From: an uncultured Muribaculaceae bacterium
GTDB lineage: Bacteria > Bacteroidota > Bacteroidia > Bacteroidales > UBA932
DNA length: 64,000 bases
NCBI GenBank assembly: GCA_964475015.1
Contig: CAYYVA010000002.1
Coordinates: 26,221-90,220, forward strand
Direction: 5' to 3'
Shown: positions 2,870-61,001 of the stretch, piece by piece
Numbering within the stretch: the stretch's first letter is position 1
Layout: each line of letters starts with the position of its first letter
Program-made: the position numbers and the translations under genes
The notes under the pieces: generated by a model
The model's input: the letters and a program-made list of their open reading frames with translations, nothing else
What the model was told of the DNA's origin: nothing
Database searches by the model: none

Positions 2870-5151
2870 ATGAGAAGAATATACCTTGCAATAATTGCAT
2901 TGCTTGCACTTTGTGTGCAGGCCGGTGCACAATCATCAGACCCACATATCATAGGCCATGTAATTGACAAGAAGACACAGGAGCATGTGCCATACGTAAC
3001 CATAAGGCTTGTAGGAACCACCCATGTTACCACTACTGATGACACAGGACATTACAAGCTTACCACAATTCCTGATGGAAACTACATGTTTGAGGCCTCT
3101 TCAGTTGGCTACATTACTGCCACACAGTCTGTAACCATAAAGTCAAACTCCACAATAACCGTGAACTTTACCATTGAGGAGGATGCCCTTCTCCTTGAGC
3201 AGGTGGTTGTTACAGGTAACAGGAGCGAGACAAAGAAAAGGCACAGCGCTACCCTTGTGAATGTTGTAAACAGGGAGATATTTGAACTTGTAAGCGCCTC
3301 TTCCCTTGCAGACGGCCTCAATTTCCAGCCGGGTGTAAGAGTTGAGAATGACTGCCAGAACTGCGGTTTTACACAGGTGAGGATTAACGGACTTGACGGC
3401 CACTATTCACAGATTCTGATGAACTCAAAACCGGTATTCTCGGCACTTGCGGGCGTGTATGGACTTGAGCATATCCCTGCAACAATGATTGACCGTGTGG
3501 AGGTGATGAGGGGCGGCGGTTCCGCACTCTTCGGTTCGGTACAATAAACATCATCACCAAGGATCCTGTGACAAACAGCGCTGAGGTAAGCCATACACTC
3601 ACATCAATTGGCATGAGCGGCGCATTGGACAACAATACCACAGCAAATGCCTCTATTGTGAATGACAACGGCAAATCAGGGCTCTTCATCTACGGACAGG
3701 CCCGTGAGAGGGATCACTATGATGATAACGGTGACGGATTTTGCGAGATTGGTACAATCAATGCCAAGACACTTGGAATCAACTCATTCTATAATATTAC
3801 AGACAACTCAAAGATACGTGCGGAGTACAGCACCACAAATGAGTACAGGCGCGGAGGTGACCAGCTTGACGTACCGCCACACCAGGCCCTCATTGCTGAA
3901 CAGACAGACCATAGCATACATGCAGGAAACATTACCTATGATGTATGGTCAAAGGATTACAGGAACAAGTTCAATGTGTATGGTGCTTTGAGGGATACCA
4001 AAAGGGACAGCTATTACGGCAGTAACATGGATCCAAATGCATACGGAAGCACCCATGACCTTGTGGTTGTTGCGGGCGGCCAGTATGTACACAAGTTCAT
4101 CAACCTTTGGTTCATGCCGGCAGAGCTTACCGGAGGAGTTGAGTACAACTACAACTATCTGAATGATGTTACTGTTGGTTATGACCATGATGTAACCCAG
4201 AAGATTAACATCTACTCTGCATTCATGCAGAATGAGTGGCGTACGGACAAATGGGGGTTCCTTGTGGGTGCCCGCATTGACAAGCACTCCCTTATTGACC
4301 ATGCAATTGTATCTCCAAGGGCAAACATCAGGTTCAACCCTTCAAACAAGCTGAACTTCAGGCTCTCATATTCTACAGGATTCCGTGCCCCACAGGCATT
4401 TGACGAAGATTTCCATATTGCAATCGTTGGAGGCGAGAGGGTTGTTACAGTTCTTGCCGATGACCTCAAGCAGGAGAGTTCAAACAGCTTCAGCTTCTCA
4501 ACCGACTGGTACCATACTTTCGGGAATGTGCAGAGCAACATCATGCTGGAGCTCTTCCATACAGATTTGAAGGATGTGTTTACAATCAGGATGCTTGAGG
4601 AATTTGACCAGAAAGGGAACCAGGTACAGGAGCGCTATAACGGTAGCGGTGCAACCGTAACCGGAATGAATCTGGAGGGAAAGGCTGTATTCAGCAAGGC
4701 TTTCATGGCCCAGGCCGGCCTTACATGGCAGCAGAGCCGCTACAAGGAGCCAGCAGAGTGGAGCGAGAACCCTGAGGTGCCTGCAGTAAAGAGGATGTTC
4801 CGCACACCGGACCTCTACGGCTACTTCACAATGCAGTTCACCCCAACCAAGACATTCTCAATGTCACTTACCGGTACATATTCAGGTGAGATGCTCGTTC
4901 AGCACATGGAGAGCTCAGGCACACCAATAGATGTTGCAGTTGAGACACCTTCATTCTTTGATGCGAACCTGAAGATATCCAAGGATTTCAAGATTTTCCC
5001 GGGAGTCGGCTTGCAGATAAACGGCGGATTGATGAACATCTTCAATTCATTCCAGGATGACTTTGACAAGGGAGTTGACCGCGATTCAGGCTACATCTAC
5101 GGCCCTATGATGCCAAGAAGCCTCTACTTCGGTGTAAAACTGAGCCTGTAA
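2870..5151 (+). pseudogene. TonB-dependent receptor (CarboxypepD_reg + plug + barrel) split by a frameshift near 3536-3541
   Basis: ORF 2870..3547 ends ...RGGGSALFGSVQ*. A different frame continues GTINIITKDPVTNSAEV... into ORF 3568..5151. Together they rebuild the conserved plug-end motif GSALxGS..G.INIITK. The C-terminus ends in a barrel-type FGVKLSL. Confidence 0.75.
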
Positions 5152-20584: not shown

Positions 20585-20711
20585 CGTTGTCCTTTTTTAC
20601 AAAAGGCTGAAAGATAAGACCTTAGAAAAAACAGGAGTGATGGATGACCTTCACTCCTGTTTTTTAATTATCACATTATGAGGTTATTGTAAAAAAGGAC
20701 AACGTAAAAAA
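20585..20711. repeat. repeat pair A: 18-bp inverted repeat cgttgtccttttttacaa / ttgtaaaaaaggacaacg flanking a bidirectional terminator
   Basis: Arms at 20585-20602 and 20687-20704; the right copy extends to 20720. It belongs to the same family as 31081-31215. Confidence 0.85.
20626..20665. terminator. bidirectional rho-independent terminator
   Basis: A-run, stem acaggagtga / tcactcctgt, then a T-run. It lies between the convergent atpK and S24-like genes. Confidence 0.7.
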
Positions 20712-21148
20712 ATAAAAAGCAAATACCTCCGTACCGGACGGAAGAAGTGCCATAATCCGGAGAGGAGTTTCCAGCTGAAGGAGCTTGTGGGGATGATGCG
20801 GAAGCTTAAACCGTTGCGGTGCCTGTGGACTTCAACGGCCTTGGCAATGATGTCCTGCCTTGTGCAGGTTTCATGGGATGCATATATTCCGTCTCCTTGG
20901 ATTGTATAAGTGTCTCCATCAATGGAAATGATTCTGTGGAGGACATGGTTTCCCCTGTAGCGGAAGAGGACTGTATCAAGTTTCTGTAGGGTTGTGTCAG
21001 GTGTTACGGCAGAAAGGAGCACCTTGTCTTTCCCGTTGCGGATGAATGGGAACATTGAAGTCCCTTTCAATGGGATGAGGACAGAGTTGCCTTGGGAGAG
21101 TTCCTGCTCTACCTGCCGGAAGTATATGTCATTTGCAATCTGTTTCAT
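20684..21148 (-). CDS. S24/S26-type (LexA / signal-peptidase-like) serine peptidase domain protein
   Basis: 154 aa with a GTSMFPF motif (the GxSMxP nucleophile region). There is no HTH domain. The last ~11 codons (LFIFLRCPFLQ) are encoded by repeat copy 20686-20718. ATGA overlap with the upstream gene. Confidence 0.6.
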   Translation of the reverse strand: MKQIANDIYFRQVEQELSQGNSVLIPLKGTSMFPFIRNGKDKVLLSAVTPDTTLQKLDTVLFRYRGNHVLHRIISIDGDTYTIQGDGIYASHETCTRQDIIAKAVEVHRHRNGLSFRIIPTSSFSWKLLSGLWHFFRPVRRYLLFIFLRCPFLQ

Positions 21149-22008
21149 TTGGCACCCAGTACTGTTTTGAATGACAGTTCAGCTGCTGCCGCATCAGGAA
21201 GGCATTCCAAGTGGTAGCAAGGGACTACTGCGAGTATTTCTGAGAGAGTACAGCTGATATGCGAGTAGATCCTTTCGTCATAGGCAAATTCTGGCGGGCA
21301 GGATGGATGCAGGGCAGCAAATCCTTTTATTACGTGCAGTTTCTGAATCTTATTATATGGTGCCTGGGACAGCCTCACACACCCTGTCAAAGGGTATCTT
21401 TCCGGCCTGTAGCAAGGTGTCTTGCCGCTCCAGGGGCTTCCATAAGCCCAAGGAGTACCATCTATTACACGTACAATTGGGCTGTCATCATTCAAAAGGG
21501 AGGCTCCCGGGATATTCTCTCTCCATAATCTCGTATGTGTGCTTTTTCCCGTTCCGCTTTCCCCAAGGAAAATTACCGCCCTGCCATCAGAAACAATGCA
21601 GCTGCTGTGGATTGCCACCGTACCGTGCCTGTAGGTCATAAGCCCGAAACCCACCCAAAGGGCAAACCTTACAAGCCTTACAGAGAGGTTCCCGTGCAGA
21701 AATACCTTGTCATCACCCTCATTGCACCAAAGGAGGAGCTGCTCCTCATCAGCCGGCTTCTGCCTGAGGAAAAAGCCGGTGGAAGTGATTCCAAACTCTC
21801 CGAGCACATCCTCAAATTCAAATGAATATTGCACCCCGGCAAGTTTTGGCAATTCCCCGGAATAGTAAAAAGAAAACTCCTCTGAGGCTTCCTGCCGGGC
21901 AAATGGCCTGAATCCTGCAATGGAATCAAGCACACCGCACAATTCTGTTCCATGCACGGCAAATTCATGGTCTGCAATCCTATATCTTCTCGTCTCCATT
22001 CTCCTCAA
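21145..22008 (-). CDS. HPr-kinase-like / PEPCK-like P-loop protein
   Basis: 287 aa with the P-loop FLGESGTGKSTHT followed by LLNDD, resembling the HprK C-terminal domain. Confidence 0.55.
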   Translation of the reverse strand: MRRMETRRYRIADHEFAVHGTELCGVLDSIAGFRPFARQEASEEFSFYYSGELPKLAGVQYSFEFEDVLGEFGITSTGFFLRQKPADEEQLLLWCNEGDDKVFLHGNLSVRLVRFALWVGFGLMTYRHGTVAIHSSCIVSDGRAVIFLGESGTGKSTHTRLWRENIPGASLLNDDSPIVRVIDGTPWAYGSPWSGKTPCYRPERYPLTGCVRLSQAPYNKIQKLHVIKGFAALHPSCPPEFAYDERIYSHISCTLSEILAVVPCYHLECLPDAAAAELSFKTVLGAK

Positions 22009-23617
22009 GATTTATTATCCTGCTGCAATAAGAGAGGGTACTCTCCCTGTGGGCAATTGAAAGTATTGTAAGCCCCTCACACTCATCCCTCAATTTATCC
22101 AGCATCATATTAATTTCCTTTTCAGTTGCATTATCCAATGCGGAGGTGGCCTCATCCAGCAGAAGCACAGATGCCCCCTTGTACAGGGCCCTTGCTATCC
22201 CAATCCTCTGCTTTTGTCCTCCCGACAGCTTGCCGCCCGATTCCCCCAGGGTTGCATCAATTCCCCCCTCAAGGGAAGCTGCCCAATCCTTCAGGGAAAC
22301 CATTTCAAGGATCTTGTGGATCCTGGCCCTGTCGAGAAGAGGATATCCCAAAGCAATGTTTTCTGCGAGGGTGCCATTGAAGATGAAGACCTCCTGCGGA
22401 ACATAACCGATCTGGGAGAGCCATGATTTCCTGTTGCCGGGATGCAAAGGGGTGTCATCTACCAGAACTTCACCGGTTGAGGGCTTAAGGAATCCCAGGA
22501 TAAGGTTGAAGAGGGTTGTCTTGCCAACTCCGCTGTATCCGCTGAAGCCCACATATTCCCCCTTGTCTATGGTAAAGTCTGCAAATTCAATAGGCTGGTC
22601 ATTATATTTGAAGGTTAGTCCCCTACCCTTTATGCAGGTATTGAAACTTAACTTTTCCTCATCTGGTTCTGCCTGGTCCGATACTTCCCTCATCCCCTCC
22701 TCAATGGTCTCCAGGGAAGGCAATGAATTCTGGATCTGTGTGTAACCTCCAAGGATACCCCTCACTGCCGGGAGGAGCCTGAAGGCAGCAACTGCAAAAA
22801 GGCCAATGAGCATGCCGGCATTATTGCCGCCCATAATTACCATAACGGCCAGACCTATTATCACTGCAGCCTCTGAGAGGAATATGGGAAATTTCTGGAT
22901 TGTGATAATCTTTATCCTGTTCTCGCTCACTTTATCAACCCCTTCAAGGAAACTCTTCTGTAGCTGCGGGAATGCACCGTTTACCTCAAGTTCCTGGTAT
23001 CCGCGGAAAGTGTCGGCCACAATTCTGGCCTGTTGTCTCTTTGCATGAAATTCTTCCCTGCCATATTCAGCGGCCTTGTTCCTGATGAAAAAGATGTAGA
23101 ATACAATGAATGGGATGAAGCAGATGTAGAGCACCGCTATTGTCCTCCAGTCATAGATGAGCAGGGCTATTGAGACCAGAATTATCAGGAGACCGTCGCC
23201 TGCCATTCTGAGCATTGGGGAAAGGATTCCCTCGCTGAAAGTGTAGGACATATAGTTTACGGCATGCCCCAGGTTACTGTAGCCCTGTTCCCTGATGTAC
23301 AGGAGACCGTTGTTGTAATACCTGAAGTAGAGGCTGAAGCTCAGTCTCTTGTATAGGGAAAGAAGATATCTGCTCTGGTATCTGCCGAACAAAGTTGAAA
23401 GGAGGCTCTTGATTACTATTACAGTAAAGGCAAATATTGCAAAATAAACTGCAGCCTTTCTATTTTCTCCCCCTTCAAGGAGATAATATAGGACCGGGAG
23501 CAATGAGGCCAGACCAATGAAATCAAGCAGGGAATTGATGAAGACAGTGCATGCCACTTTCAACCCCTTCTTCTTTTCACTGGGAAGCAAAAGATTTATG
23601 ATTCTACGGTATATCAT
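21980..23617 (-). CDS. ABC exporter, fused permease and ATPase
   Basis: Start moved to MIYRRIINLL (ATG 23617-23615, forming an ATGA overlap with the upstream stop). Walker A is GYSGVGKTT, the signature is LSGGQKQR and Walker B is LLLDEATSALD. Confidence 0.85.
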   Translation of the reverse strand: MIYRRIINLLLPSEKKKGLKVACTVFINSLLDFIGLASLLPVLYYLLEGGENRKAAVYFAIFAFTVIVIKSLLSTLFGRYQSRYLLSLYKRLSFSLYFRYYNNGLLYIREQGYSNLGHAVNYMSYTFSEGILSPMLRMAGDGLLIILVSIALLIYDWRTIAVLYICFIPFIVFYIFFIRNKAAEYGREEFHAKRQQARIVADTFRGYQELEVNGAFPQLQKSFLEGVDKVSENRIKIITIQKFPIFLSEAAVIIGLAVMVIMGGNNAGMLIGLFAVAAFRLLPAVRGILGGYTQIQNSLPSLETIEEGMREVSDQAEPDEEKLSFNTCIKGRGLTFKYNDQPIEFADFTIDKGEYVGFSGYSGVGKTTLFNLILGFLKPSTGEVLVDDTPLHPGNRKSWLSQIGYVPQEVFIFNGTLAENIALGYPLLDRARIHKILEMVSLKDWAASLEGGIDATLGESGGKLSGGQKQRIGIARALYKGASVLLLDEATSALDNATEKEINMMLDKLRDECEGLTILSIAHRESTLSYCSRIINLEENGDEKI

Positions 23618-24735
23618 TTCTCTCCACGGGTAAGGATTGTTGCAGGAAATCTCAGATGCCAGATTATTGACTGGCGGAGCAGGTACCACCTTGAGGCTCC
23701 GAGGGTATATTCTCGGAGTCTGCTTGAATGTATAACCCTTATGAACTTGTAGAATACTACAGCTATAGGGTTACTGTAAGGAACTTTTGTCTTGTATTTG
23801 GGATGTAACATCTCCTGGAGCATAAGCTCTGAAAGCTCCTTATAATCCTGCGGCAGCCTGCTTATGTCCACATCTGTACCCAGATACTTGTTGCATAGGT
23901 GTGTGAATGCTGCAATTGACCTGAGGAAGGACGGTTCTGTAATTTCATCGGGAAGATGAATGCCGTTCCTCTTGATATGGTTTGCCCAATCATACAGATG
24001 ATGCAGGGCCAACCCGGCTCCAAAATGCTGGAATGAGTGGTAAGCCAGGAATAGTGTGTTGAACCTTGCAGATGGTACAGGTATGCTGCACTCCCCATCC
24101 AGAAGGGTTGCCTTCTGTGGCTCAAGCACCTTGAAGAGGATATTATTGAGCTGGGTGAGGAATTTGGGATTTACCTCAATGTTTACAAACCATTTGTGAT
24201 TCTCAACCGGTATCCCCTTGAAATAGAAATTGCTGTGCTTCTCAGAATGGCTGTAATCAACCTCAATCCCCTGCTGGGCCATAAGCTCGTTGGCAAGCTT
24301 GTTCGCATAGTCATGGGACATTTTTGAGATGTCTGCAGAGTATGTGTAGATATCAATGTCTCCCCCTTCCCTATGAGACGGCTTGTTATAGGAAGATGCC
24401 AGCCCAACACCCTTCATCTGCACCACTTCTATTCCATTCTTCTGATAGAAATCCAATAGCTCTGCAGCTGTCCTGCAATACCTTTGGTGCTTAGCCTCAT
24501 ACTTCTCCACATTCAATGCCCACTGGAACTTCAGCTGCTTGGACGGATGCAGTTCCTTGGGGAGAAGCATCAGACCGTCCCAAGCAAGCGCCAGCACCCC
24601 ATGCCTTGCCGCAGTATCATAGCATTCCTGCCATTCTGCAGGTGTTGCCTGCCGGAAACAATCCTGCTGCGGCACCTCATTGTGCAGGGATCCCTTCAAG
24701 AGGGCAAACAATATTAGATCTCCTTTTACAAGCAT
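23614..24735 (-). CDS. nucleotidyltransferase family protein (PF14907-like 'uncharacterised NTase')
   Basis: 373 aa with ...MKGVGLASSY..PSHREGGDIDIYTY..., the typical GD[IL]D motif of this family. Confidence 0.6.
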   Translation of the reverse strand: MLVKGDLILFALLKGSLHNEVPQQDCFRQATPAEWQECYDTAARHGVLALAWDGLMLLPKELHPSKQLKFQWALNVEKYEAKHQRYCRTAAELLDFYQKNGIEVVQMKGVGLASSYNKPSHREGGDIDIYTYSADISKMSHDYANKLANELMAQQGIEVDYSHSEKHSNFYFKGIPVENHKWFVNIEVNPKFLTQLNNILFKVLEPQKATLLDGECSIPVPSARFNTLFLAYHSFQHFGAGLALHHLYDWANHIKRNGIHLPDEITEPSFLRSIAAFTHLCNKYLGTDVDISRLPQDYKELSELMLQEMLHPKYKTKVPYSNPIAVVFYKFIRVIHSSRLREYTLGASRWYLLRQSIIWHLRFPATILTRGEK

Positions 24736-24755: not shown

Positions 24756-24763
24756 CAAATATA
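24756..24763 (-). promoter_or_regulatory. candidate internal -7 box TATATTTG between btuB-like and the NTase gene
   Basis: The minus strand reads TATATTTG, 20 nt upstream of the ATG at 24735. Confidence 0.35.
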
Positions 24764-24770
24764 GTAACAA

Positions 24771-26840
24771 TCATCTGAACTTCGGCTTCACCCCTATGAA
24801 CAGTTCGAAATTTGTTCCCGGCATGGGACGGCTCAGTACAGAAAGATAATCTTCGTCAAAGAGGTTGTTCACCGTACCCTTGAGGGATATTTCAGCAAAA
24901 CTGAAATCCAGAATCCTTTCCAGTGTGATGTTGCTCATATAGTAGCTTGGCAATTTGCCAGAGAGGGAAATGTCGTTGCTGGACATTGTGTATCTGGGGC
25001 TGTAATGGCACCATTTATAAAGGAATGACCAGTTTCTCCAGTATAGTCTGCCGTTTACAGTTGCCGAATACTCAGGTACATACGGGAGTTGTTTACCTAC
25101 AGATTTGTCTGCAGGGCTAACAGGTTCCCCCTCGTTGATTGAAGGTGTCCAGGAGAGGGTTCCCTGAAGATCAAGCTTCCACTGTGGAGAAAACACAACA
25201 GAAAATTCACCGTTCCCTTCCACACCGTAGGCATGTACCCTCTTGATATTGCGGGGTGAGAAGAATCCTTTGGTTGTCGGGAGCCATATAATCCAGTTAT
25301 CTATGTATGAATCAAACCAGGAGGCTCCGGCTTTTATGGCACACTTCTCCCCCATTTTCACCTCCATGCTCAGGCCAGCATCATAAGTAAACCCCTCCTC
25401 TGGCTTCAGCTGCGGGTTACCTCCTGGAAGGAAGTACATATCATTAAGGGTTGGATAGCGGTAGTTACTTGAAACTGAAGCTTTTGCCACAAGATTCAGT
25501 TTTTCAGAAAGAACTCCATCAAGGAATAGTGCCGGAATTAGTGGTGTCCACACCTCCCCATACATCTCCTCCCTCAGCACAACAGATACCCCAATCCTCT
25601 CCAAAGGGCGCCATTTTGCAGATATGCTTCCCGACAGTTCCACTCTTCCCTTGTCATACCCAACTACAGCCTTGTTCCCCTCCTGCAGGATAATGTTCTT
25701 GTCTGCACTCTCCACAAAATGTTGGTGAAGGGAGAGATTCCCCGTAAAATACCACTCCTTCTTGGGTGTATATTCGCCGTTTACCTGCCCGTAGATGGTA
25801 TTCACCTTACTCCTGGAACGGGTCATTGGGGTAAGGATTCCATTACCGGCATCCCTTTTATAATCATAAGCCATCCAGGTATTTATATACCCTGCCTTGG
25901 CTCCTCCTTTCCATTTTTCTGCAAAATGGTCCCAGGTGAGGATACTCCTGAGAGTATGCTCTCGCTGCCGGTTCTCAAAATCTGTATCCTCAGCATAATC
26001 TGTAGTGAGCATCGCCAATTCCCTGTTGGAATTTATATACCACAGGTTCATCCCAAAGCGGTCCCCTTTACCGGTATTGTAATAGGCCTCCTGCAGGAAA
26101 TGCATATCCTTATAGGCCCCGCTGCGGTTCCTCTCCACCGGATAGTACTGCCCAACCAGCTTGTTGTCCTCATATATGTTCTCCTTTTTATCATGGTTAA
26201 TATACTTATAGTCATTTGGAGATGAAGAATATACAAACCTGGTAGATGTCTGCCACCTCTCATTTCCCCAGCTGAGCCTCAGGAACTCATCATAGGTGCT
26301 GAACGAGCCTATTCCTTGAATATACTGTAGTCCGAACCCCTCCTGCTGTGCAGGTTTTGTGGAGAGCTTGATGGCACCGCCGAGCCCTCCTCCAGTTTCG
26401 TTTACGGAAGAGGTTCCATGCAGCAGCTGGGCATCATCAATGAAATAGGAAGGTATGGTTGAAAAATCAGTCATTCCCAGCATGGGACTGTTGATTTTCA
26501 TGTCATTCCATGTAACCTGGGTATGTGAAGGGGATGTACCCCTGAAAGAAACTGTTGAGAGGGTTGCCCTGCCATAGCTTTTAACAAATACCGGAGCATT
26601 GTAGGTGAGTACATCTGCCATTGAGAGTGAAATGTTCTCCTTTAGCTCCAGAGAATCAAAGGCTGTCTTCTGTATACCTATCTCCTTCATTGGGCGCTTG
26701 GCAACCACACTCACCTCATCTAACCTGAAGTGCCATTTATGGGTTGTATCCCTCTCCTGGGCAAATATTCCTCTTCCCGACAAGATTATGAGCATTGCCA
26801 ACAAAAACTGTCGGGATACTGATGTACAAATATATTTCAT
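24771..26840 (-). CDS. btuB: TonB-dependent receptor, BtuB-like
   Basis: Start at MKYICTS (ATG 26840). It has plug and barrel regions and a terminal F. It is the fourth gene behind a cobalamin riboswitch and is adjacent to a beta-propeller lipoprotein, as in Bacteroides B12 loci. Confidence 0.7.
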   Translation of the reverse strand: MKYICTSVSRQFLLAMLIILSGRGIFAQERDTTHKWHFRLDEVSVVAKRPMKEIGIQKTAFDSLELKENISLSMADVLTYNAPVFVKSYGRATLSTVSFRGTSPSHTQVTWNDMKINSPMLGMTDFSTIPSYFIDDAQLLHGTSSVNETGGGLGGAIKLSTKPAQQEGFGLQYIQGIGSFSTYDEFLRLSWGNERWQTSTRFVYSSSPNDYKYINHDKKENIYEDNKLVGQYYPVERNRSGAYKDMHFLQEAYYNTGKGDRFGMNLWYINSNRELAMLTTDYAEDTDFENRQREHTLRSILTWDHFAEKWKGGAKAGYINTWMAYDYKRDAGNGILTPMTRSRSKVNTIYGQVNGEYTPKKEWYFTGNLSLHQHFVESADKNIILQEGNKAVVGYDKGRVELSGSISAKWRPLERIGVSVVLREEMYGEVWTPLIPALFLDGVLSEKLNLVAKASVSSNYRYPTLNDMYFLPGGNPQLKPEEGFTYDAGLSMEVKMGEKCAIKAGASWFDSYIDNWIIWLPTTKGFFSPRNIKRVHAYGVEGNGEFSVVFSPQWKLDLQGTLSWTPSINEGEPVSPADKSVGKQLPYVPEYSATVNGRLYWRNWSFLYKWCHYSPRYTMSSNDISLSGKLPSYYMSNITLERILDFSFAEISLKGTVNNLFDEDYLSVLSRPMPGTNFELFIGVKPKFR

Positions 26841-26853
26841 GATTCTGATCAAA

Positions 26854-27927
26854 TTATTTCCAGCAGAATGCACCTGGAATAATACCTACATAAAAACTGT
26901 CAAGCTTCTCCCCTTTTGCAGAGTATCTGAGAATCATCCCCTGCTGCTGATAATCAATGGCATCTGCAATATACACATCTCCATTATAAGGGGAAACTGT
27001 AAGGCCGTAATAGATAGTGCCTGCCGCATTGAGGAAAGGCTCATCAGGAAGATTCTCAGCATCAACTGACATCTCCCAGATATCATCATTTATCCAGTAG
27101 AGCATGCTCCTGTCTCCGTTGAGCTGAACCTCAGAAGGTGCATCCCCGAACTTGAACCTGAACTGCTTCTCAATAGTGAATGTTTCTGCATCAATGCAGT
27201 ACAGGGAGGGTGCTTCATGGCCATAAGGGCTTCCCTCATAGCCGCCGTCTGTAACTGTCCACATCTTGTTGTTCTTATCCAGTACAAGGGAGGTTGGCTG
27301 TATTCCCACAACAAGTTCATCTGCAACAGTATCAGTTTCAGTATCAATCTTTAGTATCCTGTTCTGGTATGACCAGCAGTTTACATAAACATATTTCCCG
27401 TACTGTACCATCTGTTCCGTGGATCCCTGCTCCATTGTCATGTTGGGGCATTGGATATAGCCGGTAATCTGGAAAGTCATTGGATTGATAATAAATATCC
27501 TGTTGTCCCAGATCTGGGTGACATACGCCTTTTCATCTGAGAGGAAATGGATATATCTCGGCGAGGTGAAATTGGTAATCCTTCCAATTTCCTTGCAGGT
27601 ATTTATATCTACTGCAAATATCACATGGGAATTGTTAACCACAATCCATCCTATGGAATCCCTTATGGACATGGACTGCGCCACATCTCCCAGCTTCATC
27701 TGGTTGACACGGTAAAACACCTCATTTTCAATGGTTTTATCATCGGGATTATAAAAAGAGAGGGTAGCATTTCCATACTGGAAATTTCCCTCATTGGTAA
27801 TGTAAAGGCCATGGGGAGGGAAATCAATTCTTTCCTGTTCTCCCAAGTCCCATTTCATGCAAGCAGTTGCTCCAGCCAACAGGAGCAACTGCAGAACATA
27901 CTTAAAAATAACCAATATTATATGCAT
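26854..27927 (-). CDS. YncE-like beta-propeller lipoprotein, BtuG-like candidate
   Basis: 357 aa with a lipobox LLLAGATAC and repeated propeller-like blades. It sits immediately upstream of the btuB-like gene. Confidence 0.5.
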   Translation of the reverse strand: MHIILVIFKYVLQLLLLAGATACMKWDLGEQERIDFPPHGLYITNEGNFQYGNATLSFYNPDDKTIENEVFYRVNQMKLGDVAQSMSIRDSIGWIVVNNSHVIFAVDINTCKEIGRITNFTSPRYIHFLSDEKAYVTQIWDNRIFIINPMTFQITGYIQCPNMTMEQGSTEQMVQYGKYVYVNCWSYQNRILKIDTETDTVADELVVGIQPTSLVLDKNNKMWTVTDGGYEGSPYGHEAPSLYCIDAETFTIEKQFRFKFGDAPSEVQLNGDRSMLYWINDDIWEMSVDAENLPDEPFLNAAGTIYYGLTVSPYNGDVYIADAIDYQQQGMILRYSAKGEKLDSFYVGIIPGAFCWK

Positions 27928-28883
27928 CAGTTGGCTTGATTTAACATACTGTAATCATAAAATCCGAATACCTCAGTTGAGTTCTCTCCCAACCAGCCGC
28001 TCTTTGTATTGAGGGCTGTCTGAACCTTTATGAAATCAACGAACTTCAGTTCAACCACATTTCCATTTGAATCTGTAGCATTTGAAAAATCAAGGAAATT
28101 ACATGACCTGAGTTCCTCTGAGGTACCGCTGTAAAAATCAGTAGGGCTATAGTTATCTGCATAACCCCAGTCATACTCCGGCTGTACCCAATATGTGCCG
28201 TTTCCAGACTGGTCATAATTCATGGCATGAAGGCAGGTGCCTTTCAAGGTATAGCTGTCCTCCTTTATCCATAACGGATAATAATACTCCTGGTTGTGAT
28301 AGGTTTTCAGATAGTCTATCTCACCACTGGCACCCGTATTATCAGTCCATTGTACAGGCATTCCGGGCCCTGACGGCCTGTAATAGGTAACCTCATAGTT
28401 TTGGATTGTCCCTTCGTTGCCTGTCTCACACCCCTTAAGTTCATACCAGGTGTCGTCGGGAAGGGAATTGCCGTTTTCATCCTGCATTACCCATACAATT
28501 CCCGGCTCAGAAGAGCCCTTGAAAGAGTTGCCCCTTATTGCAAGGTCATAGCCGGGAACATTATCTATGCTGTGGTCAAACCCAACTGTAAGATACCCTC
28601 CAAAACCTCCAAGAGAAACGAACAGATTGTCCTGCATCCTTTTGTGTGCATAATCTGCCGCCGCCTGGGGAGTTGTCTCATTTCCTGTAAAACCACCTGT
28701 CTTTGTTTCATTGATAAACTGCCCCGGAGCAGGCATATACTCATAAACCTTGTTCCACGCAGCTTGAGAAGTTTCAGTCTTGGCCCTGTAAAAATCATCT
28801 ACAGTGGTACCGATCACCTCATCCTTGTTACAGGATGAGGCAACCAATACTACCGCCATCATATATAAAAATTGTTTTTTCAT
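27927..28883 (-). CDS. cell-surface lipoprotein of B12 locus
   Basis: Start at MKKQFLYMMAVVLVASSC (lipobox), ATG at 28883. There is a 1-nt overlap with the downstream start. Confidence 0.5.
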   Translation of the reverse strand: MKKQFLYMMAVVLVASSCNKDEVIGTTVDDFYRAKTETSQAAWNKVYEYMPAPGQFINETKTGGFTGNETTPQAAADYAHKRMQDNLFVSLGGFGGYLTVGFDHSIDNVPGYDLAIRGNSFKGSSEPGIVWVMQDENGNSLPDDTWYELKGCETGNEGTIQNYEVTYYRPSGPGMPVQWTDNTGASGEIDYLKTYHNQEYYYPLWIKEDSYTLKGTCLHAMNYDQSGNGTYWVQPEYDWGYADNYSPTDFYSGTSEELRSCNFLDFSNATDSNGNVVELKFVDFIKVQTALNTKSGWLGENSTEVFGFYDYSMLNQAN

Positions 28884-28896
28884 CTGATATGAATTG

Positions 28897-30486
28897 TTAG
28901 AAACGGACAGCGAGGTCATCATACGCAAAATATGAAGGTTGGCTATATCCATAGCTATTATCACTAGTACCTAGGATGTTGAATTCAACCTTTACAACCG
29001 CTCCCAGACTGCTCAAATCCCATTTTGTCCATTCTGTGACAATGTTGTCAGGGCCATTGCACAGATAGATATCACAGGTTGTTGCATTACCATCCAGATC
29101 GTAACCGGTTGCGGTGACCTTACTCCAATCATTAGGTCCAATCTTGACGGTAAGGCCATTACCATCCATATAGCAGCTGATTGCATAACATGAATTGTTT
29201 ACGTACATATGGTCAATCACTCTTTCAACATTATCTTTAAAATAAATGTATGGAAGCACTTCTGTCTTATTATAGTCTGAACCATCAATATAGCCATAGT
29301 GGATTCCAAAGTTTTTAGAATTGCCATTTCCACCGGTCAGAGTTTCTCCATACACTTCACCGGTTCCATAGACACACTGCTGATGCTCATAGGTGCCATA
29401 TGTAGTATAATCTTCAGATGCATAATGAGATACTATATGACCTCCTCCCCAATACACTCTTGAACCATAGTTTACAGGGAACTCTGAGGCAATGAATGTA
29501 TTATTGTAATCATACCAATTATAATCACAACCTCTCATTTCACCATTGAATCCCATATCTCCATATGTAAGCGGCCCTCCATATTCAGGAGAATCAATCA
29601 AAGCAGTCCAAACTGAAACGAAGTGGTCATAATATGAATCTGTAGAGCTTTCATATCCTGTAATTGAATACCTGTCAAACATTGTATGGTTATCTTCAAA
29701 TGTAAGGGTACGGAGTACATATTCTTTCAGAGCAACACCTGAAAGGTCTGCATCTATCTTATATGTCTTTCCGGCTTCAAGTGTCTTTGAAGAGAGTGTC
29801 TGCTCGTAATATCTTGTATCATTACCAATTGCAAACTGATATGTGACCGTTGCACTTGATACGGTTCCAGGATATACAACCATGACTGCGTCAGCTCCGG
29901 TTGTAGGTGATGAGATGTTGGTCTTGAGCTCTATAATGCTCCTTCCGTCAGTAACTGTAAAACCTGAACCGCCAAAAGTGGCGCTTCCTGCAATTATGTC
30001 TTTACCTGAATGAATCCTGATTGATTTAAGGACAGCACCGGATGGGAGTGACTTTAAATTGAACCAAATATATGCAGTAGCATGATTCAATACAAAAGTG
30101 CCGTCTTGAATCTCTGCATATCCAAAATCACCATTCTCACCCAAAGATTTTGATGCATCCTGCACCACAGGAATCCAGGCAGCAGTTGGTGATTCACCGG
30201 TCATATTATAATATACTGTACCTGCCGGCTCAGATGTGAATGTGAATGTTGCACCGCCATGAGAATGAATTTCAGCAGCAGAACTCTCTTTAGTTCCGCT
30301 CCATATCTTGTCTCCTTCACTCCATACAAATGGTATAGAGTTGGCTCCTGGAGTGCCAAAATCTGTTTTTGTTAGGGTATTTGAATAACCTGTAATGGTA
30401 TAACTGTCGGGAAGAATGATTGACTCTTCTTTGGTGCAGCCCATAAGAATTAGAGCAAGCGCCAAAACAAATAATATCTTTTTCAT
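28897..30486 (-). CDS. surface lipoprotein with a DUF4465-like C-terminal domain, BtuH-like candidate
   Basis: 529 aa with lipobox LILMGC. The C-terminal pattern LTFED...YW.GG...W.KWDLSSLGAVVKVEFNILGTSDNSYGYSQPSYFAYDDLAV is DUF4465-like. It is the first gene after the riboswitch. Confidence 0.5.
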   Translation of the reverse strand: MKKILFVLALALILMGCTKEESIILPDSYTITGYSNTLTKTDFGTPGANSIPFVWSEGDKIWSGTKESSAAEIHSHGGATFTFTSEPAGTVYYNMTGESPTAAWIPVVQDASKSLGENGDFGYAEIQDGTFVLNHATAYIWFNLKSLPSGAVLKSIRIHSGKDIIAGSATFGGSGFTVTDGRSIIELKTNISSPTTGADAVMVVYPGTVSSATVTYQFAIGNDTRYYEQTLSSKTLEAGKTYKIDADLSGVALKEYVLRTLTFEDNHTMFDRYSITGYESSTDSYYDHFVSVWTALIDSPEYGGPLTYGDMGFNGEMRGCDYNWYDYNNTFIASEFPVNYGSRVYWGGGHIVSHYASEDYTTYGTYEHQQCVYGTGEVYGETLTGGNGNSKNFGIHYGYIDGSDYNKTEVLPYIYFKDNVERVIDHMYVNNSCYAISCYMDGNGLTVKIGPNDWSKVTATGYDLDGNATTCDIYLCNGPDNIVTEWTKWDLSSLGAVVKVEFNILGTSDNSYGYSQPSYFAYDDLAVRF

Positions 30487-30625
30487 GATTCTGATTGTTA
30501 AGTTATTGAATAATGGCCCATGGATCTAAAGGTGATACACCTGATCCGCCGCTTGTTGCAAATCCTTTTTCAACTTCAATTTCAATTACCTAAACTTCAG
30601 GTTGTACATAGATTGGTTTTTCCAT

Positions 30626-30688
30626 AAAAAAACGTGTTTTAAGTTGTTAATGTTACCTGAACCGGGGTACAGTAAAACTCAAAACACG
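30626..30688 (-). terminator. riboswitch expression-platform terminator
   Basis: On the minus strand: stem cgtgttttgagtt / aacttaaaacacg (1 mismatch) followed by U7. Confidence 0.5.
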
Positions 30689-30852
30689 CCTTTACGGATA
30701 CTTATATGCTTAGTAAGAATGTAGGAAAAGTCAATTGTAAATGATACAATACGACAAGCCGGCTGACCTACTCTCCTCTCTGCAATTTGTAATACGGATA
30801 AAAACTGTTTTGATTTTCACCCGTAACCTGCAGGCTCAATCGTATAATGCAA

Positions 30853-31032
30853 AGTGGCAGGTCTTCTGACTTATTCCATTTGCCGAGCCTTCCCAGCGCC
30901 AAGCGCCAGTGGCAAAGAGTCCGGCAAATTCAAATTCCTTGAGGAATGGAATTCACAGCAACAGGTATTGTCCCGGATTCACACCGGATTCCCTATTCTC
31001 CCGCTGGAGAGTAATGCTCCATTAGGAACCAT
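30853..31032 (-). promoter_or_regulatory. cobalamin (B12) riboswitch
   Basis: The minus strand reads ...AATAGGGAATCCGGTGTGAATCCGGGAC...GCCACTG...GGGAAGGC...AGTCAGAAGACCTGCCA. These are the conserved core and B12-box of the cobalamin riboswitch class. Confidence 0.85.
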
Positions 31033-31040
31033 TTGCAATG

Positions 31041-31072
31041 CAAAGCTAAACAACATATTTTTTAATTGCAAA
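31041..31072 (-). promoter_or_regulatory. candidate promoter of the B12 operon (-33 TTTG, -7 TAGCTTTG)
   Basis: Minus strand: TTTG, 19 nt, TAGCTTTG, ending about 7 nt before the start of the riboswitch. Confidence 0.4.
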
Positions 31073-31256: not shown

Positions 31257-31529
31257 ATGAAAATAGACAGCAAATACATAATGAGGGAGATAGCCGGTGA
31301 GAAGGTTGTGGTAAGACAAGGGACCCACGGTGTGGATATGACCAGGATAATTTCCTTCAATGAAAGTGCCGCGGCACTCTGGGAGGAGTTCTGCAAGAAG
31401 GAGTTTACAGCAGAGGATGCAGCGGGATTTTTGAAGGATAGGTATGGGATAAATAAGGAAATGGCTGCCAATGATGCCAATTTGTGGATAAACAAACTGA
31501 CAGATTGCGGTGCAATATTAAATTCTTAA
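31257..31529 (+). CDS. PqqD family protein (RiPP recognition element type)
   Basis: 90 aa: KYIMREIAGEKVVV...ISFNESAAALWEEF...FTAEDAAGFLKDRYGI..EMAANDANLWINKL, the typical PqqD/RRE pattern. Confidence 0.75.
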   Translation: MKIDSKYIMREIAGEKVVVRQGTHGVDMTRIISFNESAAALWEEFCKKEFTAEDAAGFLKDRYGINKEMAANDANLWINKLTDCGAILNS

Positions 31530-31615: not shown

Positions 31616-31780
31616 ATGGCAATGTCGATTAAAATGATTCCTGTGTTGAAAGGGCAATGTGCGGTGGATTTCGTATCTGCGGCAGATGCCAATAGTCAGA
31701 ACCAGACGCCCAGGCTTACTGATCAGGAAGCCGAAAGGATCAAGGATGTAATAAAGAAATCAAAGTCATTCAAATTCTAG
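31616..31780 (+). CDS. 54-aa ORF, candidate antitoxin (alternatively a peptide precursor)
   Basis: My own translation: MAMSIKMIPVLKGQCAVDFVSAADANSQNQTPRLTDQEAERIKDVIKKSKSFKF. It is below the ORF-track cutoff, lies 11 nt upstream of the GNAT gene and has its own promoter box. Confidence 0.4.
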   Translation: MAMSIKMIPVLKGQCAVDFVSAADANSQNQTPRLTDQEAERIKDVIKKSKSFKF

Positions 31781-31791
31781 AATTTATCGGG

Positions 31792-32385
31792 ATGACAAAC
31801 AGATTTTCTTTGTATGACAGTTGTGTAATGATACAATTGTCAGATGAGGTTATTGCAAATTGTGATAAGTTCAATTGCGGCAATGCAGACCTTGATGATT
31901 TCTTCATGAATGATGCCAAGAAATATGCAGACGAGCTTATGGGGAAAACATATTGCTGGATAACTGAAAGCAAACCACATAAGATTGTTGCTCTATTTAC
32001 ACTGGCTAATGACAGCATCAAAACAACTTATTTAGGCTCATCTGCAAAAAACAGGCTGAATCGTCCTATAGATAATCCTAAAAGAGGAAGAAGTTATCCG
32101 GCTGCTCTTATAGGCAGGATTGGAATTAATTCTGAATTTCAAGGACAACAAATAGGGAGTCAGTTAATAGGTTTTATAAAAGACTGGTTTAGAGCGGAAG
32201 ACAATAAAACCGGATGTAGATTTCTTGTAGTAGATGCTTATAATAATCCAAGGACTTTAAAGTTTTACGAAAGAAACGGTTTTAAATTTTTACATAAGAC
32301 AGAAGATGAGGAGAAAGTATATTATCATATAAAGGATAATGACATTACAACTCGGCTCATGTACTTTGACCTTAAAAATAAATAA
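31792..32385 (+). CDS. GNAT family N-acetyltransferase, TacT/AtaT-like toxin candidate
   Basis: 197 aa with FNCGNADLDDFF near the N-terminus, RIGINSEFQGQQIG (acetyl-CoA loop) and VVDAYNNPRTLKFYERNGF. Confidence 0.7.
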   Translation: MTNRFSLYDSCVMIQLSDEVIANCDKFNCGNADLDDFFMNDAKKYADELMGKTYCWITESKPHKIVALFTLANDSIKTTYLGSSAKNRLNRPIDNPKRGRSYPAALIGRIGINSEFQGQQIGSQLIGFIKDWFRAEDNKTGCRFLVVDAYNNPRTLKFYERNGFKFLHKTEDEEKVYYHIKDNDITTRLMYFDLKNK

Positions 32386-60886: not shown

Positions 60887-60894
60887 TACCTTTG
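60887..60894 (+). promoter_or_regulatory. -7 box TACCTTTG for the SRP RNA
   Basis: It ends about 5 nt before the predicted 5' end of the RNA. Confidence 0.45.
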
Positions 60895-60898
60895 TGCC

Positions 60899-60996: not shown

Positions 60997-61001
60997 TTTT
61001 T

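Follow-up and report, generated by a model that had tools for sequence, protein, structure and literature searches.

Lasso RREs bind leaders of the YxxPxL type, and in pseudomycoidin the phosphate is elaborated by PsmN. The original prediction had likened to the accessory genes of phosphorylated lasso-peptide clusters a group of four overlapping minus-strand genes, with a PqqD/RRE gene nearby, in a 64,000-nucleotide stretch of DNA from an uncultured Muribaculaceae bacterium (contig CAYYVA010000002.1; this whole stretch is called the window below). Our analysis is in agreement with this likeness. The PqqD family profile gave the lasso RRE TfuB1 (E=3.7e-7) and then TbiB1 as best matches in the PDB, and the best Foldseek matches of the kinase-like protein model were ATP-PEPCK (E=1.5e-7) and HprK/P (E=3e-5). 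The predicted lack of a lasso cyclase, B2 protease, YcaO or LanM enzyme was borne out by a Pfam scan of every non-overlapping window ORF of at least 120 aa, four excepted, in which no Asn synthetase, transglutaminase-like, YcaO or LanM protein was found; the sole radical SAM protein among these ORFs, a class also said to be missing, is a MiaB-type tRNA enzyme (53967-55256). In the flanks of homologous loci, no cyclase, radical SAM, YcaO or other class-defining enzyme recurs. The reading to which we lean, with a little more confidence than doubt, is that the cassette carries out maturation and export in an RRE-dependent RiPP-like system common in gut Bacteroidales.

Table 1. Features of the cassette and of its surroundings in the window (positions are those of the window).
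Feature	Position	Strand	Basis
Small S26-type Ser/His peptidase, putative leader peptidase	20684..21148	-	Conserved residues, AF2/Foldseek
PEPCK/HprK-fold P-loop protein, putative peptide kinase	21145..22008	-	AF2/Foldseek, PF27840 ScmC
ABC exporter, fused TMD-NBD	21980..23617	-	PF00005 and PF00664
PF14907 nucleotidyltransferase (NTase)	23614..24735	-	PF14907 (NTP_transf_5), 141 bits, full-length domain
TATATTTG, promoter-like, 20 nt 5' of NTase ATG	24756..24763	-	Sequence read directly
TonB-dependent receptor, BtuB position	24771..26873	-	Plug and TonB_dep_Rec_b-barrel
DUF5074 beta-propeller-type lipoprotein, BtuG position	26854..27927	-	PF16819, 74.5 bits
Lipoprotein, BtuH position, no family match	27927..28862	-	Gene call of 311 aa on contig L090
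Lipoprotein with C-terminal DUF4465 (BtuJ-type) B12-binding domain	28897..30486	-	PF14717, 118 bits, residues 345-525
Precursor-like small ORF, TAG-interrupted	30503..30625	-	Family HMM, E=8e-8, part after the stop
Strong hairpin, U7 run at its end, pairs with peptide ORF AUG	30621..30698	-	RNA fold
Cobalamin riboswitch aptamer at the head of the minus-strand gene run	30839..31048	-	Rfam RF00174
PqqD-family RRE, displaced, divergent from riboswitch promoter region	31257..31529	+	PF05402, 35 bits

Independent gene calls on contig L001 reproduced all the overlaps of the cassette (4 nt between the NTase and ABC genes, 29 nt between the ABC and kinase-like genes and 4 nt between the kinase-like and peptidase genes), and none of the four window genes is truncated, their overlaps following the conserved pattern. 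The exporter ORF spans 21980-23689(-); its likeliest start is the ATG at 23617, which gives the 545 aa protein called on L001. Each of the motifs on which the original prediction relied (GDIDIY, GYSGVGKTT, LSGGQKQR, LLLDEATSALD, GESGTGKST and GTSMFPF) is present in the translations. The nucleotidyltransferase and the fused TMD-NBD exporter were both recovered by profile searches, the latter with 110 bits for ABC_tran (PF00005), and the ABC protein is assigned from its sequence to the exporter type (ABCB/PglK/MsbA).

The HPr-kinase-like nature of the P-loop protein was upheld at the level of the fold by its AF2 model (pLDDT 91) and failed at the level of the profile, PF07475 giving no match. 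A precomputed match to PF27840 ('ScmC') was found; the NCBIfam matches were weak (TIGR04352, 19 bits; TIGR04249, 17 bits) and the protein reached the curated cut-offs of no named kinase family. Its family counts 7,897 cluster representatives at E<=1e-3, and across 44 diverse sequences H134, S136, S151, G152, G154-T157 and N173-D175 are invariant, as are the Walker A and N-D-D motifs. The protein may be regarded as a putative peptide kinase. For the peptidase, announced as S24/S26-type, an S26 type with a Ser/His pair was retained and a LexA-like S24 type was discarded on the basis of residues and Foldseek. Profile matches were to S26/signal-peptidase families only and weak (16-28 bits, under the cut-offs), and the AF2 model (pLDDT 90) had SpsB signal peptidase I, LexA, SipA and SEC11 as best structural matches. 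Residues G29, S31, M32, P34, H71, R72, G85 and E93 are invariant in sets of 78 and 31 sequences, and D86 is nearly so (98% in the 78-sequence set). The protein has neither a signal peptide nor a TM anchor, no hydrophobic segment of TM length being present, and is predicted to be cytoplasmic. With its catalytic boxes (Ser, His-Arg, Gly-Asp) intact, it is the natural candidate for the leader peptidase, in whose place the original prediction had seen a serine peptidase.

A peptidase homologue was found at 83 of 89 loci, in nearly all of them directly beside the kinase-like gene, and in 80 other genomes the two genes are hardly ever apart; natural fusions of the two also occur (six representatives). 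Of the loci in these 80 genomes, about 60% have PqqD next to this pair, about 75% the exporter and 25% the NTase (20 of the 80 GTDB loci for the latter); the exporter is present at 67-69 and the NTase at 25 of the 89 loci. The linkage with PqqD, on which the original prediction had been staked, is recurrent, PqqD homologues lying directly within the cassette at 55 of the 89 loci. The system is widespread in gut Bacteroidales, with thousands of homologues in conserved order, and no description of it was found in the literature. In human-gut and GTDB contigs, the full order is peptide, fimbrillin-like lipoprotein, PqqD, NTase, ABC exporter, kinase-like protein and peptidase. The window differs from this complete form in that a riboswitch-controlled Btu-like block, headed by the peptide gene and its lipoprotein, separates these two from the NTase, and in that PqqD has been displaced across the promoter region. 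The lipoprotein gene directly 3' of the peptide gene is a regular component that had gone unnoticed in the original prediction; at 88 of 106 occurrences its start is no more than about 200 nt (typically 12-36 nt) from the peptide gene.

The statement that the locus has no recognisable precursor did not stand. When intergenic ORFs were compared all against all without prior bias, the small ORF that recurred most belonged to a peptide family of 34-59 aa. Its members have a conserved part of the pattern Y-x-x-P-x-V-E-V-I-E-V-E-V-E-K-G-F-A-x-S and, behind it, an acidic, Gly/Trp-rich tail (median 13 aa) that is hypervariable and contains no Cys. One motif fits 182 of the 185 unique peptides; the Ser is present in 181 of these 182, and their tails come in 153 different forms. 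In an alignment of 15 sequences, the Y, P, E, G, A and S positions do not vary. The family comprises 2,147 sequence clusters in the protein collection, all unnamed; it has no Pfam or NCBIfam model and no paper on it was found. This architecture is compatible with a conserved leader and a variable core, and the YxxPxφ motif is the one bound by lasso B1 RREs. The existence of tail subfamilies with their own motifs (GNW, DDMPY, DWxxGTW) indicates that the tails are under selection. Ser/Thr is not conserved in the tails (30 of 153 contain none), which weakens the core as phosphorylation target. Among the 80 GTDB loci, a peptide gene lies within 10 kb at 10 of 20 NTase-positive versus 2 of 60 NTase-negative loci. 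Where 8 kb or more of sequence is available downstream of the peptide gene (12 loci), the whole cassette is present at 4, and two thirds of the well-covered peptide loci have none within 10 kb. Since NTase-negative cassettes mostly lack a detectable precursor within 10 kb and most well-covered peptide loci lack a cassette, action in trans must be assumed. The window copy reads MEKPIYVQPEV-TAG-VIEIEVEKGFATS-GGSGVSPLDPWAIIQ-TAA. Its in-frame TAG (30592-30590), shared by the independent assembly L090, occupies a position coding for E or Q in family members; TAG terminates 5 of 51 genes here and is thus not recoded, so that the window gene is probably a pseudogene.

A different explanation, which we hold to be unlikely, places the adjacent fimbrillin-like (type V pilin-like) surface lipoprotein at the centre, the peptide and the cassette serving its biogenesis or function. 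Once exported, the peptide might donate a beta-strand, act as a chaperone or bind the conserved N-domain as a ligand, or the lipoprotein might serve as its receptor or display platform; the conserved, amphipathic V-E-V-I-E-V-E-V-E would then be the functional part and not a disposable leader. The near-constancy of the lipoprotein gene speaks for this, as do a lipobox in 73 of 78 unique proteins, 61 of which form one homology cluster, matches of several to Pfam Mfa_like_1 with varied C-terminal domains, and the persistence of peptide-lipoprotein pairs where no cassette is nearby. Residues 1-246 of the window BtuJ-like protein belong to the same group (E=2e-20 with an HMM of N-domains from lipoproteins downstream of peptide genes elsewhere). 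SipA, a signal-peptidase homologue required in pilus assembly, has the highest query TM-score for the peptidase model, but the peptidase has retained the catalytic residues that SipA lacks. Moreover, the YxxP motif and the lasso-type RRE point to the conserved part as a recognition leader, and the tail subfamilies, each with motifs of its own, show selection on the tails. The ordinary RiPP model leaves the constant lipoprotein partner unexplained.

The original prediction also overlooked the riboswitch and the four B12-uptake genes upstream of the cassette. The aptamer matched RF00174 over its full length (89.7 bits; gathering score 31.5) and is also present in contig L090; the hairpin that follows (dG -30.5 kcal/mol, z = -4.7; 0 of 200 shuffles fold as well) is a candidate expression platform. 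DUF4465 is the BtuJ B12 binder, and the B. thetaiotaomicron order BtuJ-BtuH-BtuG-BtuB can be inferred from gene numbers quoted in the same paper (PMC13616437). The window receptor scored only 51 bits against TIGR01779 TonB-B12 (cut-off 600); the BtuH-position lipoprotein gave no Pfam match, and its L004 counterpart bears PKD_3/PKD domains. In the window lineage, the cassette follows B12 genes in two different arrangements: it begins only 35 nt after the Btu-like block here, with the same order in a 69%-identical relative, and about 30 nt after cbiA-cobO-cobQ-cobD-cbiB in L177, an 84%-identical relative. At an Alistipes locus, a riboswitch-controlled btu operon lies 3.5 kb from the cassette. 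The kinase-like protein and the NTase might accordingly have corrinoid intermediates as substrates, like PduX/CobU/CobY analogues (a kinase plus guanylyltransferase); corrinoids would then be what the ABC protein transports, and the cassette would belong to the B12 regulon. This is quite improbable. Outside the window lineage B12 genes are not beside the cassette, the TBDR/DUF5074/DUF4465 homologues are limited to that lineage and L035, the riboswitch is missing at 13 of 14 other loci scanned, that of L035 serves a converging operon beyond a tRNA gene, and 2 or 3 of about 80 lineages is close to chance expectation. In all three relatives a promoter-like element lies directly 5' of the NTase: TATATTTG fits the Bacteroides -7 consensus TAnnTTTG, and the equivalent site carries TACCTTTG in L177 and TATATTTG in L004 despite different upstream genes, making it a possible promoter of the cassette's own. 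The PqqD, peptide and peptidase partners and the kinase-like::peptidase fusions are left unexplained by a cobalamin function.

That a PglK/MsbA-like flippase, the NTase and the kinase handle a lipid-linked sugar or capsule component of the envelope is very improbable. In NCBIfam the ABC protein comes closest to PglK and MsbA, and its PDB match to PglK extends over the full length (E=6e-57), but all the NCBIfam scores are 3-4 fold under the family cut-offs; one relative is back-to-back with a capsule locus, but neither a glycosyltransferase nor a sugar-nucleotide gene recurs in the flanks. One paper mentioning PF14907 reportedly deals with phosphonate natural products and cell-surface decorations; the PqqD RRE, the catalytically intact peptidase and the co-located peptide family favour a peptide substrate. 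A decaying lasso-peptide cluster without present function, to which the lasso-type RRE, YxxP leader and kinase/NTase/ABC accessories without cyclase or B2 protease, the pseudogene and the displaced PqqD might point, is hardly credible in view of the thousands of homologues that keep the order, the invariant catalytic residues of the kinase-like protein and peptidase, their natural fusions, more than 2,100 intact precursor clusters and the four full-length window genes.

In the RRE-dependent RiPP-like system that we prefer, the lasso-B1-like PqqD would bind Y-x-x-P-x-φ in the conserved N-terminal part of the precursor, and the PEPCK/HprK-fold protein would phosphorylate a peptide hydroxyl using ATP, the candidate sites being the near-invariant Ser of G-F-A-x-S or a tail Ser/Thr. 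Where encoded, the PF14907 NTase could elaborate the peptide phosphate as PsmN does in pseudomycoidin. The peptidase, complexed with the kinase-like protein, would remove the leader in the cytoplasm; cleavage after A-x-S (-3/-1 rule) is a likely guess, and cleavage after G-F (F at -1, also a guess) would give the lasso leader spacing Y-17/P-14/φ-12. The product, short (about 8-25 aa), acidic and rich in Gly, Asp and Trp, would leave through the ABCB-type exporter and, beyond the inner membrane, probably act with the co-encoded surface lipoprotein.

In the window genome, the nonsense codon of the peptide gene has probably killed the local precursor, with the enzymes still intact, and owing to this stop codon and the separated PqqD the local system may not work. 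For the family as a whole, the cassette most likely trims, phosphorylates and exports small peptides.

Small same-strand ORFs lying beside the cassettes were clustered and one convincing family was obtained. With its HMM, the window and 15 distinct loci were found to hold members, and in an unbiased all-against-all comparison of 904 small ORFs from intergenic regions the same family came first. The original prediction had described the module as lacking a precursor, a view contradicted by these results: a conserved peptide family accompanies the NTase-containing cassettes, and a copy interrupted by a TAG codon is present in the window. The consensus reads M-x(3-20)-Y-E-A-P-x-V-E-V-I-E-V-E-V-E-K-G-F-A-x-S followed by a variable tail, and an alignment of 15 sequences shows no variation at Y, P, E, G, A and S. 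A profile search highlighted 2,147 clusters of 34-85 aa, all 'hypothetical' or unnamed and free of Pfam domains. One motif fits 182 of 185 unique peptides, its last position being Ser in 181 of the 182. There are 153 distinct tails, with medians of 13 aa for length and -2 for net charge. They are composed of G (20%), D (12%), P, E and N (∼8% each) and W (7%); Cys occurs in none of the 153, an aromatic residue in 145, and subfamilies carry their own motifs, e.g. G-E-x-G-N-W, D-D-M-P-Y or D-W-x-x-G-T-W. As read from the sequence, conservation of the N-terminal part and hypervariability of the C-terminal one give the classic layout of leader and core, and the gene content corresponds to that of a generic RiPP system, i.e. 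a gene-encoded precursor with conserved leader and variable core, co-located with RRE and processing genes. No Pfam or NCBIfam model was found for the six peptides scanned, the single hit being a chance-level match to the StsA sactipeptide leader (E = 0.019), and no published mention of 'EKGFA' in the sense of this peptide was found. Near cassettes without NTase, no second precursor family emerged, only antisense artefacts and an unrelated small-protein family. In a Prolixibacteraceae MAG (locus L068), four to five paralogous precursor genes surround one cassette having two NTase genes, and one copy stops right at G-F-A-D-S, without a tail.

The peptide gene is found at 10 kb or less in 10/20 NTase-positive GTDB loci, against 2/60 NTase-negative ones. 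When metagenomes were scanned from the peptide, many human-gut contigs presented the order peptide, large lipoprotein, PqqD, NTase, ABC, kinase-like, peptidase, one peptide recurring on 28 contigs and another on 13. Downstream sequence of 8 kb or more was available for 12 distinct peptide loci, 4 of which contain the whole cassette; the remaining peptide genes are remote from any cassette. Since these genes lie far from cassettes and L068 holds five copies, peptide and cassette are likely to act in trans. The immediate neighbour of the peptide is more constant: an ORF of at least 150 aa begins within ∼200 nt (typically 12-36 nt) 3' of the peptide gene in 88 of 106 occurrences. A lipobox-like signal was detected in 73 of the 78 unique downstream proteins, and one BLAST cluster holds 61. 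Several of these lipoproteins match Pfam Mfa_like_1 (fimbrillin-like) and their C-terminal domains vary (LRR_5, Fib_succ_major, DUF6055). Residues 1-246 of the DUF4465 protein of the window match the HMM of the partner-lipoprotein N-domains (E = 2e-20), so the gene directly following the window peptide ORF is the canonical partner, a lipoprotein whose C-terminal domain is here of BtuJ type. In two further contigs (L093/L094), a peptide gene and the gene of a 1,093-aa lipoprotein occur with no cassette nearby, in a setting resembling a mobile element (integrase, relaxase, MobC and restriction-modification genes).

The window peptide gene reads ATG GAA AAA CCA ATC TAT GTA CAA CCT GAA GTT TAG GTA ATT GAA ... 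CAA TAA, and its translation is MEKPIYVQPEV-stop-VIEIEVEKGFATSGGSGVSPLDPWAIIQ-stop. A sequencing error was ruled out, the TAG being found at the same codon in an independent assembly from another run (L090). Recoding was also ruled out, as TAG is an ordinary stop that ends 5 of 51 genes here, the ABC gene among them. Because the TAG replaces the E/Q of the family, recurs in the independent assembly and is an ordinary stop, the local precursor is most likely a recent pseudogene, all four enzymes being intact. The very stable hairpin covering its start is probably the riboswitch expression platform. Elsewhere in the window, an apparently split TonB-dependent receptor (2870-5151) is possibly a second disrupted gene of this genome.

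Features of the window and of the homologous loci compared with it
Feature	Sequence	Position	Strand	Remarks
Peptidase	window	20684-21148	-	S26/signal peptidase I only, 16-28 bits, below cut-offs
Kinase-like P-loop protein	window	21145-22008	-	HprK-related kinase A, 19 bits; ScmC, 17.5 bits; precomputed Pfam PF27840 'ScmC'
ABC exporter	window	21980-23689 (ORF)	-	ABC_tran, 110 bits, and ABC_membrane; real start most likely ATG at 23617 (21980-23617)
NTase	window	23614-24735	-	PF14907, 141 bits
TAnnTTTG box	window	24763-24756	-	TATATTTG; immediately 5' of NTase start; also L177 ∼7240 and L004 ∼7250
TonB-dependent receptor	window	24771-26873	-	followed after 35 nt by NTase gene
DUF5074 protein	window	26854-27927	-	after second lipoprotein
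Second lipoprotein (BtuH position)	window	27927-28862	-	after DUF4465 lipoprotein
DUF4465 lipoprotein (BtuJ type)	window	28897-30486	-	first gene after peptide ORF
Peptide ORF	window	30625-30503	-	YxxP small-ORF family
In-frame TAG	window	30592-30590	-	at E/Q position of the family
Hairpin	window	30621-30698	-	dG -30.5 kcal/mol, z = -4.7, U7 run; covers/sequesters AUG of peptide ORF
Cobalamin riboswitch	window	30839-31048	-	RF00174, 89.7 bits
PqqD	window	31257-31529	+	PF05402, 35 bits
54-aa ORF	window	31616-31780	+	after PqqD
GNAT acetyltransferase	window	31792-32385	+	followed by namZ
Apparently split TonB-dependent receptor, first part	window	2870-3547	+	CarboxypepD_reg and Plug
Apparently split TonB-dependent receptor, second part	window	3568-5151	+	beta-barrel
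TldD/PmbA metallopeptidase pair	window	41673-43100; 43016-44455	+; +	∼10 kb from PqqD, beside M14 carboxypeptidase
Bacteroidales small SRP RNA	window	60893-61000	+	RF04183, 106 bits
Precursor genes	L068	2905-3078; 6043-6195; 8041-8271; 14413-14592
Peptide and lipoprotein genes	L093/L094	4563-7988
cbiA-cobO-cobQ-cobD-cbiB	L177	1755-7235		cassette directly after

In the window, the four cassette genes close a longer series of genes on one strand, headed by the cobalamin riboswitch; PqqD is encoded on the opposite strand and diverges from the promoter region of the riboswitch. The proposed overlaps (NTase/ABC, 4 nt; ABC/kinase-like, 29 nt; kinase-like/peptidase, 4 nt) were reproduced by independent gene calls for a contig with an identical kinase-like protein, and all the motifs quoted in the original prediction were found in the translations. 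The reported absence of lasso cyclase, B2 protease, YcaO and LanM agrees with the Pfam scan, which covered all non-overlapping window ORFs of at least 120 aa except four. Neither an Asn-synthetase-like cyclase nor a transglutaminase-like B2 protease was found in the ORFs scanned, and neither recurs around the 80 GTDB loci described below. The sole radical SAM protein of the window is a MiaB-type enzyme, 30 kb away. The unrelated 54-aa ORF and the GNAT gene after PqqD have a toxin-antitoxin-type look, and the pair is not recurrent beside PqqD elsewhere. TldD/PmbA-type peptide processing is known from microcin B17 maturation; the window pair is probably housekeeping. The small SRP RNA places the window in the Bacteroidales.

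Homologues of the kinase-like protein number more than 8,000 in the 90% collection; at 50% identity there are 7,897 representatives. Annotation with HMMs of the window proteins covered 80 loci of GTDB species genomes, the majority Bacteroidales and one a Chloroflexi (Flexilinea), and nine further contigs brought the set to 89 loci. A peptidase homologue is present in 83 of the 89 and nearly always adjoins the kinase-like gene; the ABC exporter is found in 67-69, PqqD within the cassette in 55 and the NTase in 25. A homologue of the TonB-dependent receptor of the B12 block occurs in five loci, four of the window lineage (L001, L004-L006) and one of Alistipes (L035). The recurrent orders are PqqD-NTase-ABC-kinase-peptidase, PqqD-ABC-kinase-peptidase, ABC-kinase-peptidase in Alistipes, kinase-peptidase-PqqD-ABC in Prevotella and others and, without exporter, PqqD-kinase-peptidase::VanZ. 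Kinase-like and peptidase moieties are fused into a single polypeptide in six representatives (P0123, P0176, P0188, P0215, P0216 and P0238). Where the exporter is missing, the peptidase carries a VanZ-like C-terminal membrane domain (L021, L033, L041, L047, L049, L050, L052, L053, L058 and L084), PF04892 scoring above its cut-off in the three fusion loci tested. Clustering of all other flanking ORFs revealed no recurrent enzyme, lineage-specific synteny being the only signal. On the basis of these counts and of the flank clustering, the PqqD link and the missing core enzyme, both proposed from the window, are general properties of the module.

A PDB search with the single PqqD sequence gave no match. 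With a 34-sequence profile, the best solved relative was the lasso RRE TfuB1 (E = 3.7e-7), followed by TbiB1 and two other lasso PqqD chaperones at non-significant E-values (0.3-0.4). Lasso B1 proteins recognise Y(-17)-x-x-P(-14)-x-L(-12), a pattern that the invariant Y-x-x-P-x-φ of the peptides fits, so that binding is predicted. The AlphaFold model of the kinase-like protein (pLDDT 91) matched in Foldseek ATP-dependent PEPCK best (E = 1.5e-7) and also HPr kinase/phosphorylase (E = 3e-5); the PDB sequence search with its profile returned P-loop and PEPCK fragments only. In 44 diverse sequences, H134, S136, S151, G152, G154-T157, N173-D174-D175 and G190/S194-G195-K196 are invariant; conservation of the Walker A residues G149, E150 and T153 reaches 90% or more. 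Fold, Walker A and acidic motif of this putative kinase are those of the HPr kinase/phosphorylase superfamily. The ABC protein aligns over its full length with PglK and ABCB exporters.

The peptidase model (pLDDT 90) gave SpsB signal peptidase I, LexA/UmuD, SipA and human SEC11 as best fold matches. In sets of 78 and 31 sequences, G29, S31, M32, P34, H71, R72, G85 and E93 are invariant, D86 being invariant in the 31 and 98% conserved in the 78. S31 and H71 occupy the SM-x-P and (K/H)-R boxes of S26 enzymes; bacterial signal peptidases have Lys where this peptidase has His, and S26B has His. Since no signal peptide or TM-length hydrophobic segment was detected, with two short C-terminal helices only, the peptidase should act in the cytoplasm. 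A LexA-like autoproteolytic repressor was ruled out, in view of the missing HTH, the S26 boxes with His and the pairing with the kinase-like gene. The families originally proposed were right at the superfamily level, the peptidase being of the S26 rather than the LexA-like S24 type. The kinase-like protein has no PF07475 match, and the peptidase remains below the curated S26 models (TIGR02227, 28 vs 47 bits; PF10502, 16.5 vs 22.9 bits).

DUF4465 is the BtuJ B12-binding domain (PMC13616437), and the order riboswitch-BtuJ-BtuH-BtuG-BtuB of the window appears to mirror B. thetaiotaomicron Btu operon 2 (BtuJ2-BtuH2-BtuG2-BtuB2, B12 riboswitch), from the gene numbers in the same article. The window shows the succession riboswitch, DUF4465 lipoprotein, lipoprotein, propeller lipoprotein and TonB receptor, the second lipoprotein having PKD domains in the homologue of L004, a 69%-identical relative with the same order. 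Over genes 24771-30486, riboswitch and DUF4465 are clear; the receptor scores 51 vs 600 bits for the TonB-B12 equivalog, and the DUF5074 protein is a putative BtuG-type protein by gene order alone. Unlike Btu operon 2, the window has a BtuJ-like protein whose additional N-terminal domain is of the kind found in peptide-associated lipoproteins, a peptide (pseudo)gene precedes it, and the block is followed by the cassette instead of the btuFCD importer genes.

This location raises the question of whether the kinase-like protein and the NTase would act on corrinoids. Three related genomes put the cassette after B12 genes: in the window and L004 it lies 3' of the btuJHGB-like genes, and in the 84%-identical relative L177 directly after cbiA-cobO-cobQ-cobD-cbiB instead of a Btu block. 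The cobO gene of L177 is of the cobO-type adenosyltransferase kind. However, the riboswitch was not found in 13 other loci scanned, that of L035 belongs to a convergent operon located past a tRNA gene, and other lineages have no B12 genes at the cassette. Moreover, a TAnnTTTG box, a match to the Bacteroides -7 promoter consensus, lies just 5' of the NTase ATG in three relatives with differing upstream genes. As the box precedes the NTase whatever lies upstream, the cassette probably has its own, predicted, promoter. General B12 control of the cassette was ruled out by the riboswitch scan, and corrinoids as substrates have a low probability.

The system is rated as a variant of RRE-dependent peptide maturation, for which we infer the following steps. 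PqqD would hold the leader, the P-loop protein would phosphorylate the peptide, and the NTase, where present, would extend the phosphate by analogy with PsmK/PsmN of pseudomycoidin, a precedent cited in PMC7533575. The S26-type enzyme would remove the leader and the exporter would release the tail peptide to the periplasm. Cleavage after A-x-S would satisfy the -3/-1 rule of S26 enzymes and an alternative cut after G-F would give the exact lasso spacing Y-17/P-14/φ-12; the near-absolute Ser would be either P1 or the phospho-acceptor.

The paeninodin and pseudomycoidin clusters of Firmicutes consist of A, C, B1, B2 and D with an HprK-like kinase and a PF14907-type NTase. The likeness of the cassette to this accessory set, already pointed out in the original prediction, is supported: both possess a PqqD/B1-type RRE (nearest here to TfuB1), a precursor with Y-x-x-P-x-φ in its conserved N-terminal part, a P-loop protein of HprK/PEPCK fold, a PF14907 NTase and a TMD-NBD exporter. 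In contrast with lasso clusters, the cassette has an S26-type Ser/His peptidase in the protease place, its peptides lack the Thr at -2 and the conserved C-terminal Ser, a lipoprotein is a constant partner and the product is presumably linear. The cassette would work like a lasso-derived RRE/kinase/NTase/exporter set without lasso membership, because neither cyclase nor B2 protease is present.

PqqD-family proteins are also combined with a distant HprK-like P-loop protein in the HprK-related kinase A/PqqD (TIGR04352/TIGR04353) and SynChlorMet ScmC (TIGR04249, PF27840) cassettes. The window protein falls far below both models (TIGR04352, 19.2 bits vs cut-off 200; TIGR04249, 17.5 vs 125) and has no radical SAM ScmE/ScmF-type or SPASM partner; its precomputed PF27840 match is faint, that of many homologues unmarked. 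Beyond what these cassettes contain, the Bacteroidales one includes an exporter, an S26-type peptidase and the pair of peptide and lipoprotein genes. The cassette peptidase has the fold of type I signal peptidases (S26A, bacterial; S26B, archaeal and ER SEC11) and of the pilus-assembly homologue SipA, as well as the boxes G-x-S-M-x-P, H-R-φ and G-D. It differs in its length of ∼150 aa, the lack of a TM anchor, a presumably cytoplasmic location and, in certain genomes, fusion with the kinase-like protein or the VanZ-like domain. Literature searches for the cassette, PF14907/NTP_transf_5, or PqqD with HPr kinase, fimbrillin or Bacteroidales found no description, those for ScmC being swamped by unrelated acronyms, and a Bacteroidales RiPP-mining survey makes no mention of the cassette. 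Nothing found offers a precedent for three features: the peptidase of S26 type, the peptide family and its partnership with lipoproteins.

There is a fair chance that the system defines a new RiPP class. A more complete scheme is tentative and, taken as a whole, rather doubtful: in gut Bacteroidales of humans and animals, where the class would be abundant, short acidic Trp-containing peptides would be cut by a cytoplasmic enzyme of signal-peptidase type from a leader of the lasso-like YxxP kind, O-phosphorylated by a PEPCK/HprK-fold kinase, decorated in some cases by the PF14907 NTase, and exported. As dedicated partners (ligand, cofactor or signal), they would then serve fimbrillin-like surface lipoproteins of modular build, whose variable C-terminal domains would capture specific targets, vitamin B12 in the window lineage.

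The identification of the precursor makes the 'orphan' enzyme set testable, as regards the phosphorylated residue, the cut site of the S26-type enzyme and the role of the exported peptide. This enzyme may be the first S26-type leader peptidase, and the cassette may be the first lasso-derived RRE/kinase/NTase set operating without a cyclase. Cassette and peptide family are very common in gut Bacteroidales, as indicated by the number of kinase-like representatives, by a peptide family of over 2,100 clusters and by the dozens of contigs from human gut. The regular pairing of the peptide with fimbrillin-like surface lipoproteins, the B12-binding one included, suggests that in a dominant gut phylum small secreted peptides are linked with nutrient capture or adhesion.
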